Origin: Escherichia coli
Lineage (GTDB): Bacteria > Pseudomonadota > Gammaproteobacteria > Enterobacterales > Enterobacteriaceae
Strand: one strand, 5' to 3'
Assembly (NCBI RefSeq): GCF_003334255.1
Contig: NZ_QOWU01000108.1
DNA: 4,516 nucleotides
A program made the position numbers and the translations under genes. Shown here piece after piece: positions 2,437 through 4,033 of this stretch. Each line of letters starts with the position of its first letter. The stretch's first letter is position 1. The notes beneath the pieces were generated by a model. It saw only the letters and a program-made list of their open reading frames with translations. It ran no database searches and was not told the DNA's origin.

Positions 2437-3387
2437 TTATTTGCGTAGTCTGACCTCTTCTACCGCATGATTAGCACTTTTCGTCAGGATTAAACTGGCG
2501 CGCTCACGAGTAGGTAGAATATTTTGCTTTAAGTTCAGCCAGTTGATCTCTTTCCACAATGTCATGGCAGTCTTAATCGCTTCTTCTTTAGTTAATTTCG
2601 CGTAGTTATGAAAATAGGAATCCGGGTCGGTAAAAGCCCCTTCGCGGAATTTCAGAAAACGGTTGATATACCATGTCTGAAGTAAGTCTTCCGGTGCATC
2701 AACATATATCGAAAAATCGACAAAATCAGAAACAAATACATGATGTGGATCGTGTGGATAATCCATCCCGCTCTGTAAGACATTTAACCCTTCAAGAATT
2801 AAAATATCAGGCTGAACAACCGTTTTATCTCCATCCGGGATCACATCATAAATAAGATGTGAGTAAACAGGTGCTGTAACGTTTGGCACGCCGGATTTGA
2901 GATCGGAAACAAACTTCACCAGGCGATGCATATCATACGATTCCGGGAAGCCTTTCTTCTTCATCAGACCACGTTCTTTCAGAACCTGATTAGGGTGAAG
3001 GAAGCCATCTGTAGTGATCAGTTCAACACGACGATGTTCCGGCCAACGGCTTAATAGCGCCTGCAATACACGGGCGGTTGTACTTTTCCCCACCGCGACA
3101 CTGCCAGCAATACTGATAATGTAAGGAATGCGTTGCCCGTTGGTACCAAGAAACTGTTCCAGAACTGCCTGACGGCGCAGATTCGAGCTTATATAGAAGT
3201 TCAGCAAACGTGACAAAGGTAAATAGATCTCGGCAACTTCTTCTAACGAGAGATCTTCATTAATACCTTTGAGACGGGCGATCTCATCTTCCGATAACGT
3301 CATAGGTACGGAATCACGCAGAGCTGCCCACTGGTTGCGGTCAAACTGTAGGTAAGGCGTCATTAACGTTTGCTCTTTTATACTCAT
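2437..3387 (-). CDS. coaA: Pantothenate kinase (type I, CoA biosynthesis)
   Basis: Minus-strand ORF whose product from [20 protein letters not shown] to AVEEVRLRK is recognised as E. coli CoaA (316 aa). Walker A/P-loop GSVAVGKST at aa 95-103 (nt 3079-3105). The ORF track extends the frame to 3543 (368 aa), but I place the start at the ATG at 3385-3387 (MSIKEQ); the extension is only a stop-free in-frame leader. Confidence 0.9.
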
Positions 3388-3639
3388 AAGCATGTTTCTG
3401 GCGGTCATAGCTCTATCGGCAAAGCGATATTTGCCATGGCGCGTCACAGTTCTGTTGAATGGGTTAATGGGCAGGAGGGTAACACCAGATGGGGAGGAAT
3501 AATAAGAAAAAATCTCTGCCAGGAAGCTATCGTTGAAAAGCAATGTGACAGATATTCCATCTGATAAAAAGAATTATGGTTTAGCAGGAGCGCATTGTTG
3601 AGCACAATGATGTTGAAAAAGTGTGCTAATCTGCCCTCC

Positions 3640-3705
3640 GTTCGGCTGTTTCTTCATCGTGTCGCATAAAATGTGACCAATAAAACAAATTATGCAATTT
3701 TTTAG
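3640..3705 (+). promoter_or_regulatory. AT-rich upstream activating region (UP element / likely Fis-binding region) of the tRNA-tufB promoter
   Basis: Strongly A+T-rich tract (cataaaatgtgaccaataaaacaaattatgcaatttttt) directly upstream of the -35. Stable-RNA promoters, including the thrU(tufB) operon promoter, are known to be Fis-activated through upstream sites. Individual sites were not resolved by eye. Confidence 0.45.
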
Positions 3706-3742
3706 TTGCATGAACTCGCATGTCTCCATAGAATGCGCGCTA
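3706..3742 (+). promoter_or_regulatory. Sigma70 promoter of the thrU-tyrU-glyT-thrT-tufB operon
   Basis: -35 TTGCAT (3706-3711), 17-bp spacer, -10 TAGAAT (3729-3734), then GC-rich discriminator gcgcgc (3735-3740), which is typical of stringently controlled stable-RNA promoters. The predicted start is about 7-8 nt before the first tRNA. Confidence 0.8.
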
Positions 3743-3748
3743 CTTGAT

Positions 3749-3824
<76 letters not shown>

Positions 3825-3832
3825 TCAAGTCC

Positions 3833-3917
<85 letters not shown>

Positions 3918-4033
3918 ATTTCGGCCACGCGATGGCGTAGCCCGAGACGATAAGTTCGCTTACCGGCTCGAATAAAGAGAGCTTCTCTCGATATTCAGTG
4001 CAGAATGAAAATCAGGTAGCCGAGTTCCAGGAT

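Follow-up and report, generated by a model that had tools for sequence, protein, structure and literature searches.

Two promoter modules and the inverted repeats of the coaA–thrU(tufB) intergenic region of Escherichia coli

Genes and features of the interval

The window, a stretch of 4,516 nucleotides of Escherichia coli DNA, contains the end of rrfB followed by murB, birA, coaA and the thrU-tyrU-glyT-thrT-tufB operon (E. coli K-12; RefSeq annotation). Positions 3388–3748 are the long-studied intergenic region between coaA and the divergent thrU-tufB operon, and this interval is 100% identical to MG1655. An Rfam E-value scan of 3300–3830 gave the tRNA alone above threshold, the other matches lying far under their gathering scores. 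For comparison we used 85 upstream sequences from the Enterobacteriaceae and Erwiniaceae; the core promoter was compared in 78 distinct upstream regions from the Enterobacteriaceae, aligned without gaps, and in 6 Erwiniaceae as well. Two mutually independent promoter modules are found in the interval, that of thrU(tufB) at ~3607–3748 and that of coaA at 3462–3513. The coordinates of their elements are given in Table 1, together with those of two inverted repeats, IR1 (ATGCAA-N8-TTGCAT) and IR2.

Table 1 Features of the coaA–thrU interval and its flanking genes, in window coordinates; positions relative to the thrU start take A3742 as +1
Feature	Position	Strand	Remarks
coaA (pantothenate kinase)	2437–3387	−	ATG at 3387–3385; RefSeq annotation
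coaA core-promoter block, 52 bp	3462–3513	−	Near-invariant; covers −45 to +6
coaA transcription start	3468	−	Genome 4175107, reverse strand; Reg-Seq supplementary file
coaA putative extended −10, TGtTACCCT	3476–3484	−	TG at −16/−15, TACCCT at −13 to −8; near-invariant
IR2, CATTGT-N5-ACAATG	3593–3609	.	Real; local conservation at background, 0.09–0.28 bits
Fis-type 15-mer GTTGAAAAAGTGTGC	3612–3626	+	Centre −123; consensus in 53/85, G-N13-C frame in 67/85
Weaker Fis-type 15-mer GGCTGTTTCTTCATC, Escherichia lineage	3644–3658	+	Centre −91; fits GNNNRNNWNNYNNNC; at this position in 14–17/78 species only
Fis-consensus 15-mer GCATAAAATGTGACC, proximal	3664–3678	+	Centre −71 (3671); consensus at this position in 85/85 sequences
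A+T-rich (83%) segment	3683–3705	+	−59 to −37; T6 tract 3698–3703; 3689–3705 near-invariant
IR1 left arm, ATGCAA	3692–3697	+	Real; varies (GTGCAA, ATGCGA, CTTTAA, CTGCAA, TCGCGA, CAGTGA, others)
−35 hexamer TTGCAT (IR1 right arm)	3706–3711	+	Same in 77/78 Enterobacteriaceae, 6/6 Erwiniaceae
17-bp spacer	3712–3728	+	Length constant in every aligned species; sequence partly conserved
−10 hexamer TAGAAT	3729–3734	+	TAAAAT in some genera; 78–100% conserved per position (78 Enterobacteriaceae)
Discriminator GCGCGCT	3735–3741	+	G+C-rich; invariant in 78 Enterobacteriaceae
Predicted start A3742 and 7-nt 5′ leader ACTTGAT	3742–3748	+	A3742 is genome 4175381; leader invariant in Enterobacteriaceae
thrU, tRNA-Thr(UGU), first gene of the operon	3749–3824	+	ARAGORN; Rfam tRNA 73.8 bits; RefSeq

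The thrU(tufB) promoter and its Fis-type sites

An earlier, sequence-only reading of this DNA proposed a core promoter made up of TTGCAT, a 17-bp spacer, TAGAAT and, at 3735–3740, GCGCGC, and this layout is borne out by the sequence. The same reading called the promoter near-consensus. The label fits the −10 alone, since TAGAAT agrees with TATAAT at 5/6 positions whilst the −35 agrees with TTGACA at only 3/6, a total of 8/12; a consensus promoter scan requiring at least 4/6 in each hexamer did not call the thrU promoter. The positions of the hexamers are invariant across 84 related genomes, with 14 nt between the end of the −10 and the tRNA-Thr, and the discriminator of the Erwiniaceae reads GCGCGTC or GCGCCTC. 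Deduced from the position of the −10, the thrU +1 would be A3742, and the module would be a sigma-70 promoter starting there or thereabouts. G+C-rich discriminators give short-lived open complexes, and so make initiation sensitive to ppGpp/DksA and to growth rate; according to the literature the discriminator is the feature tied to negative stringent control. Where the G+C-rich discriminator of promoters under such control is discussed, the references given include a paper on the tufB operon.

Fis sites were sought with a 15-bp core having G at −7, a purine at −3, A/T at 0, a pyrimidine at +3 and C at +7, a consensus of five critical positions with a background of 0.9% per position. Because this consensus is degenerate, its matches across the window are no commoner than in shuffled sequences, and the case for Fis sites rests on positional conservation and the literature. 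When GNNYRWWWWWYRNNC was scanned with at most one mismatch, the sole intergenic match was the proximal 15-mer at 3664–3678, whose flanking G−7 and C+7 are 100% conserved. The numbering of the sites depends on the predicted start; with +1 at A3742 the Fis-type sites fall at the canonical −71 and −123. A thrU Fis site is listed among the experimentally verified natural sites, and the Fis sites of tyrT have been described at −71/−91/−122. The layout at thrU, −71/−91/−123, mirrors that of tyrT, −71/−91/−122, the proximal −71 being common to the class. Fis binding and activation at thrU are taken here from the literature; Fis dimers bound upstream, at the proximal −71 site and at others near −91, −102 and −123, would activate the promoter.

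The upstream DNA is A+T-rich, as had been noted previously (3660–3711 has 27% G+C). The T-tract at −44 to −39 is near-invariant in the comparative set and is retained in the Erwiniaceae. Compared with the UP-element consensus NNAAAWWTWTTTTNNAAAANNN, the segment from −59 to −37 has 8 mismatches, a poor match. The segment 3683–3705 is probably contacted by the RNA polymerase alpha-CTD in the manner of an UP element, and the invariant A+T-rich stretch at −53 to −37 with its T-tract probably aids docking of the polymerase, either by alpha-CTD contacts or by DNA curvature. One observation counts against this account: the G and C of the IR1 left arm are 94% conserved in the Enterobacteriaceae, which goes beyond the needs of a generic A+T-rich UP element.

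Much of this is familiar from other stable-RNA promoters. The spacer of rrnB P1 is 16 bp, against 17 bp at thrU. Like rrnB P1 and tyrT, the thrU promoter drives stable RNA and combines a G+C-rich discriminator with upstream DNA rich in A+T; it differs from them in its −35, TTGCAT, and in the poor UP match at −59 to −38, where a T-tract takes the place of the A-tract proximal subsite. The architecture expected of growth-rate and stringently regulated promoters, as put forward in the sequence-only reading, is upheld by the discriminator, the A+T-rich upstream DNA and an involvement of Fis that is indicated by both conservation and the literature. The thrU-tufB promoter of MG1655 is the same locus; it has been reported to be activated by Fis and to be under both stringent and growth-rate control, the latter being described as involving Fis. 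The interpretation as the thrU-tyrU-glyT-thrT-tufB promoter is thus correct, yet already known, and since thrU-tufB is a classic model of Fis and stringent control, confirming its architecture adds nothing new.

Inverted repeats within the interval

IR1 exists as it was first described, with ATGCAA separated by 8 bp (TTTTTTAG) from TTGCAT, so that its right arm is the −35 hexamer itself. The perfect repeat is found in 48 of the 78 Enterobacteriaceae and in none of the 6 Erwiniaceae. In the remaining 30 Enterobacteriaceae and in all 6 Erwiniaceae the left arm is altered, in no case with a compensating change in the −35, and the sole change in the right arm (TTGCAA, in one sequence) is likewise uncompensated. 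A dyad operator would have both arms conserved or changes in one compensated in the other, and IR1 shows neither. The 8-bp spacer has just three forms, all ending in the same base, and therefore varies no more than the left arm does. In the local composition, the chance that the −35 hexamer has an inverted copy starting no more than 15 bp upstream of it is ~0.7%, a figure from a test that was picked after the repeat had been seen. As a hairpin or cruciform IR1 was rejected, the single-stranded DNA fold reaching only −3.9 kcal/mol (z = −1.4). From these comparisons the dyad itself appears not to be the selected feature; in the Enterobacteriaceae IR1 probably arises because the palindromic partner of a fixed −35 happens to lie within a conserved upstream segment.

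IR2, previously placed at 3594–3610 with 5-bp arms, is real, although it lies one position earlier and is better described with arms of 6 bp. Conservation upstream of thrU drops to background at about −135 and IR2 lies upstream of that point, in spacer DNA that is not conserved, and most probably arose by chance. Inverted repeats as a class are within chance expectation in the 361-bp interval. With 6-bp arms and a spacer of at most 10 bp there are 3, against 1.27 ± 1.37 in dinucleotide-preserving shuffles, 16% of which contain at least 3; with 5-bp arms there are 9, against 4.85 ± 2.69. We know of no description of IR1 or IR2 as functional elements. Comparative support is needed before a short inverted repeat that takes in a promoter hexamer is read as an operator, and such support is absent here.

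The unconserved DNA contains further matches. Two are promoter-like, against 1.1 expected: the minus strand has TCAACA-17-CATAAT (3601 to 3573), the plus strand GTGACA-18-AAGAAT (3545 to 3574). An NtrC-like 17-mer, AGCACAATGATGTTGAA, at 3601–3617 overlaps IR2 and agrees at 10/14 positions; 7% of shuffles match it, and it lies in poorly conserved DNA, barely better than chance. None of the scans for NtrC, CRP, the CytR octamer or the UP element clearly beat the shuffles.

Taking all of these data together, we are largely confident that the interval holds the known Fis-activated thrU(tufB) promoter and a separate coaA promoter, with the inverted repeats incidental. Among other readings, IR1, centred at ~−40.5, might be an operator lying over the −35 for a dimer other than Fis, either a repressor or an activator of class II type (NtrC, CytR-like or another). 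Its dyad centre is at the usual location of class II sites and, like those for CRP and FNR (centre −41.5), it is a 20-bp dyad that includes a weak −35 (3/6). The left arm is 72–100% conserved per position in the Enterobacteriaceae, G and C included, and CAT, the half of the −35 that departs from the consensus, does not vary. The right arm, GTTGCATG, agrees at 7/8 positions with GTTGCATT, which we take to be the CytR octamer, but this match is equalled in 26% of shuffles. With the NtrC box IR1 shares the form TGCA...TGCA; the spacing of the two is however 1 bp too long, and against the 17-bp box TGCACCAnnnTGGTGCA there are 7 mismatches at the 14 specified positions. In contrast to class II sites IR1 matches neither the CRP nor the NtrC consensus, and its dyad is not kept in relatives, being imperfect in the sequences noted above (down to 2/6 pairs) with at least 7 variants of the left arm, none compensated. 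The small number of spacer variants is also unlike typical dimer sites, and the chance-level density of 6-bp inverted repeats weighs in the same direction. We consider this reading improbable. A genomic SELEX peak for NtrC (in vitro, 63% intensity) has been located in this spacer at about window position 3674; it speaks for such an operator, and is not accounted for by the known regulators in the explanation that we prefer.

The conserved segment from −78 to −52 could instead be mainly a class I CRP site, TGTGA-N6-(A/G)AACA at 3672–3687, centred at ~−62. Its left half, AAATGTGA, fits a CRP half-site perfectly, the whole has 2 mismatches to TGTGA-N6-TCACA, and in the alignment of most genera it sits in a larger imperfect palindrome, AAAATGT-N10-ACATTTT. 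However, the right half is without the critical C, and a match as good is found elsewhere in the interval and in 16% of shuffles. The two 100% conserved bases G3664 and C3678 lie respectively outside the CRP site and in its spacer, and correspond to −7 and +7 of the Fis site. Our search found no link in the literature between CRP and the thrU promoter, and we regard a site of this kind as very unlikely.

That both inverted repeats are sites for Fis or other nucleoid proteins serving the thrU and coaA promoters jointly, as the sequence-only reading had suggested, is the least credible of the alternatives and is already largely contradicted by the comparison of related genomes. The thrU promoter is indeed acted on by Fis according to the literature, the region around the repeats is A+T-rich, and a 15-mer at 3588–3602 that overlaps IR2 has 4/5 of the critical Fis positions. 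Every 15-mer around IR1, however, has at least 2 mismatches at the five critical positions, and the 15-mer at IR2, the best there, counts as ‘category 3’ for want of the outer C and lies in an unconserved region; the conserved Fis-type sites lie elsewhere, at 3664–3678 and 3612–3626. Nor does the geometry suit a shared site. The two starts are 274 bp apart, IR1 is at −224 to −243 relative to that of coaA, and the spacing between the modules is not fixed: the intergenic length ranges from 316 to 1091 bp, and the coaA block lies 60–116 nt from the coaA ATG and 227–957 bp from thrU among species. In some genera a whole gene has been inserted between the modules, such as the GNAT-like (acetyltransferase family) ORF in Kosakonia sacchari, L021. 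No single site with fixed geometry between both starts was found in this comparison, which indicates that the divergent thrU and coaA promoters share no control region.

The coaA promoter block

Pantothenate kinase, the product of coaA, is the enzyme that controls the rate at which coenzyme A is made, and to our knowledge there is essentially no description of how enterobacteria regulate CoA biosynthesis at the level of transcription. The 52-bp coaA block was found in 79/79 Enterobacteriaceae loci and in 5/6 of the Erwiniaceae; it is present as one copy per E. coli genome and is unannotated. The start at 3468 is preceded by a putative extended −10 and by a poor −35, and the promoter, on the minus strand, is predicted to be weak. 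In its entry for this start, the Reg-Seq supplement credits the sole experimentally validated coaA TSS to Song & Jackowski (1992). Reg-Seq (Ireland et al. 2020) gives coaA no activators and one repressor, with a repressor-type site at −37 to +1 for which the factor is unassigned. This site (window 3505–3468) lies inside the block, so that the coaA promoter would be overlain by it.

What is new with respect to Reg-Seq is the conservation of the block across two families and its independence from thrU. The promoter is poor, and the invariance of its non-consensus bases in both families is hard to explain by recognition by RNA polymerase alone. Tentatively, then, the block may be the operator of a repressor that is conserved in the Enterobacteriaceae as well as the Erwiniaceae and determines the level of coaA transcription, although we hold this to be somewhat doubtful. 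This deeply conserved block is the sole lead here with forward value; if a conserved coaA operator is real, the transcriptional control of CoA biosynthesis becomes directly testable.

Several other readings of the block were considered. A small ORF (AGGAGG, 10 nt, ATG at 3489) was rejected because a 1-nt indel breaks the frame in Enterobacter and its relatives, and because the ATG is ATT, TTG or absent elsewhere. Recognition by sigma-32, sigma-54 or sigma-E was set aside after comparison by eye with their consensus sequences, the block being without the matching second element in each case; the E. coli CCCCATCT falls in its variable part. For a structured coaA 5′ UTR the folding gave z = −1.4. 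Our literature search found nothing linking FadR to coaA. The sequence ATCTGGTgttACC presumably resembles a FadR half-site and, if true, FadR at the coaA block would link CoA synthesis to acyl-CoA sensing.

The thrU(tufB) promoter

The window is an E. coli K-12 region that opens with the end of rrfB and the rrnB terminators, continues with murB, birA and, on the minus strand, coaA, and then takes in thrU-tyrU-glyT-thrT and the first part of tufB; the gene order is taken from the MG1655 record. ARAGORN finds four tRNA genes, tRNA-Thr(UGU) beginning at 3749. The interval 3388–3748 is 100% identical to MG1655 4175027–4175387 (genome = window + 4171639), and megablast located it in 5418 of 5426 complete E. 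coli genomes, listed as 'coaA' and 'tRNA-Thr'.

All of the elements named in the sequence-only reading exist (both arms of the inverted repeat IR1, 17-bp spacer, -10 and GC discriminator), and that reading had correctly recognised the promoter of the tRNA-tufB operon, which is a known one, and its stable-RNA class. One review counts a tufB-operon paper among its references for the G+C-rich discriminator found in promoters under stringent control. The description of the promoter as near-consensus was an overstatement: TTGCAT and TTGACA have only TTG in common, the overall match is 8/12, and a standard consensus scan did not call it.

Elements of the thrU(tufB) promoter, read from the sequence, with conservation in 78 Enterobacteriaceae sequences
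Feature	Position	Strand	Conservation
15-mer	3664-3678		first G and last C invariant
Segment TTTATGCAATTTTTTAG	3689-3705		nearly invariant
IR1 left arm ATGCAA	3692-3697	+	
Gap between IR1 arms, 8 bp	3698-3705	+	
-35 TTGCAT (IR1 right arm)	3706-3711	+	99-100% per position
Spacer, 17 bp	3712-3728	+	
-10 TAGAAT	3729-3734	+	100%, third base excepted (G/A)
Discriminator GCGCGC	3735-3740	+	100%
7-nt leader			100%

A single CoaA scan of a species-representative collection yielded 80 syntenic Enterobacteriaceae loci, and six Erwiniaceae genomes were added through exact-protein look-ups. The 135 bp 5' of thrU gave a gapless alignment of 78 distinct Enterobacteriaceae sequences. Taking A3742 as the probable +1, conservation stays above background as far as about -135 (window about 3607), upstream of which it drops to 0.07–0.10 bits. 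The -35, T-tract, -10 and a Fis-type 15-mer at -71 are all retained in the six Erwiniaceae. On its thrU side the interval is unremarkable and has already been accounted for.

Inverted repeats and regulator-like sites upstream of thrU

The second inverted repeat (IR2, CATTGT-N5-ACAATG) is present but had been placed at 3594–3610; it lies one base to the left, at 3593–3609, with 6-bp arms. Short inverted repeats in the interval are no more numerous than in dinucleotide-preserving shuffles (three with 6-bp arms vs 1.27 ± 1.37, equalled by 16% of shuffles), and as single-stranded DNA the IR1 hairpin reaches only -3.9 kcal/mol (z = -1.4).

In the 78 Enterobacteriaceae sequences IR1 pairing is perfect in 48, 5/6 in 23 and ≤4/6 in 7. 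TTGCAT is kept as the right arm in 77 of them and the left arm, besides ATGCAA, takes seven forms (GTGCAA, ATGCGA, CTTTAA, CTGCAA, TTGCGA, GCGCGA and AAGCAA), with no compensating changes; the inter-arm spacer has three variants only, its last base invariant, and varies no more than the left arm does. The left arms of the six Erwiniaceae (TCGCGA, CAGTGA, TCGCAA, CTGCGA, TCGCGA and AAGCAA) form 2 to 5 of the 6 pairs. This uncompensated variation, with the -35 and T-tract retained, indicates that selection acts on the -35 and the upstream segment containing the T-tract and not on the IR1 dyad.

The suggestion that the inverted repeats are Fis or nucleoid-protein sites is not supported. Against a published Fis consensus, Gnn(c/t)(A/g)(a/t)(a/t)(T/A)(t/a)(t/a)(T/c)(g/a)nnC, with five critical positions, the best 15-mer in IR1 mismatches at two of the five; the sole Fis-like neighbour of IR2 is without the outer C, and IR2, at -133 to -149, is outside the conserved module. 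The five-position pattern matches upstream of thrU at 3612, 3621, 3625, 3644 and 3664, and elsewhere also, and the stricter pattern (≤1 mismatch) has a sole intergenic match, at 3664–3678. Degenerate Fis patterns are no commoner across the window than in shuffles, so that weight is placed on positional conservation. The consensus occurs at -71 in 85/85 sequences and at -123 in 53/85 (background 0.9% per position); the G-N13-C frame at -102 is retained in 60/85, and the -91 match is found in only 14–17 species, Escherichia among them. The Bosch laboratory reportedly mapped Fis-dependent activation to a region between about -58 and -98. Given +1 at A3742, the Fis-type positions reproduce the tyrT arrangement (-71/-91/-122). 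Fis action at the thrU promoter is backed by the literature, in which Fis takes part in the growth-rate-dependent control of thrU, and 'thrU-87' is a natural Fis site with experimentally verified binding (10.9 bits).

In vitro, a genomic SELEX study of phosphorylated NtrC found a peak in the coaA/thrU spacer, at 4,173,336 in older coordinates and with 63% of maximum intensity; this is equivalent to about window 3674, the resolution being some 100 bp. IR1 departs from the NtrC box at 7 positions. The best NtrC-like 17-mer, AGCACAATGATGTTGAA (3601–3617), overlaps IR2 and matches at 10/14 (4 mismatches), which 7% of shuffles equal; it also forms one half of another repeat, AGCACA-N15-TGTGCT (3601–3627). 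Neither a CRP-like half-match at 3672–3687 nor a CytR-octamer-like GTTGCATG at the -35 is above chance. Overlapping the -71 Fis-type site is a larger imperfect palindrome, GCATAAAATGT / ACAAATTATGC (3664–3695, 82% complementary), which looks like a CRP site of which one half is good; its form in most other genera is AAAATGT-N10-ACATTTT, with the centre near -62.

The coaA promoter block

Alignment of whole intergenic regions revealed an unexpected second near-invariant block at 3462–3513, found in 79/79 Enterobacteriaceae loci and 5/6 Erwiniaceae, and 80–100% conserved at nearly all positions in 85 sequences. It occurs once per genome and is unannotated. The Reg-Seq supplement (Ireland et al. 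2020) gives the coaA start as 4175107, reverse strand ('only experimentally validated TSS ... Song & Jackowski 1992'), which is window 3468. On the coaA strand the block comprises TTTTTTCTTATTATTC at -45 to -30, a variable stretch of 6–8 nt and ATCTGGTGTTACCCTCCTGCCCATTGT at -22 to +6. By its sequence TGtTACCCT would be the coaA extended -10, in agreement with the mapped start; the core promoter is weak and its -35 region poor. Reg-Seq assigns coaA one repressor and no activator, with a newly found repressor-type site at -37 to +1, no factor identified, corresponding to window 3505–3468 within the block. The coaA side holds one deeply conserved promoter block with a candidate regulator site. 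A small plus-strand ORF in the block (AGGAGG, 10 nt, ATG) was rejected, its frame and start codon not being conserved.

That sites are shared with the coaA promoter had also been proposed. IR1 lies at -224 to -243 relative to the coaA start, and 274 bp separate this start from that of thrU. In the 79 Enterobacteriaceae loci the block remains 60–116 nt from the coaA ATG and lies 227 to 957 bp from thrU; the whole intergenic region measures 316 to 1091 bp. In Kosakonia sacchari, one of the loci with about 1 kb of intergenic DNA, a GNAT-like ORF intervenes between thrU promoter and block. The separation of the starts, the variable distance and this insertion make common binding sites very unlikely. 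The ORF (1691–2278 of that locus, about 190 aa, coaA orientation) is probably the counterpart of Salmonella STM4141.

The mechanical coaA ORF (2437–3543, minus) reaches an upstream TTG at 3543 (368 aa), and public collections hold CoaA versions of 368 and 424 aa (proteins P0001–P0003). With transcription mapped to begin at 3468, the native mRNA cannot encode such N-terminal extensions, which are therefore over-calls. The 5' UTR (3388–3468, minus) is 81 nt in E. coli, differs in length among genera and contains no obvious Shine-Dalgarno sequence before the ATG. Many species have a GCCAT...ATGGC stem around a variable loop; in E. coli the folding falls short of significance (z = -1.4).

Elsewhere in the window, AACTGCCAGGCATCAAAT occurs twice within 100–330 (about 105–122 and 273–290), with a G+C-rich hairpin and then a T run after each copy; these are presumably the rrnB T1 and T2 terminators, 3' of the 5S rRNA. 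The murB stop and birA start overlap (ATGA, 1443–1446), and a single hairpin, GGGGAGtattcgCTCCCC (2409–2436), likely a bidirectional terminator, separates the convergent birA and coaA. The tyrU-glyT spacer (3918–4033) is unusually long at 116 nt; the remaining spacers of the tRNA cluster are 6–8 nt.
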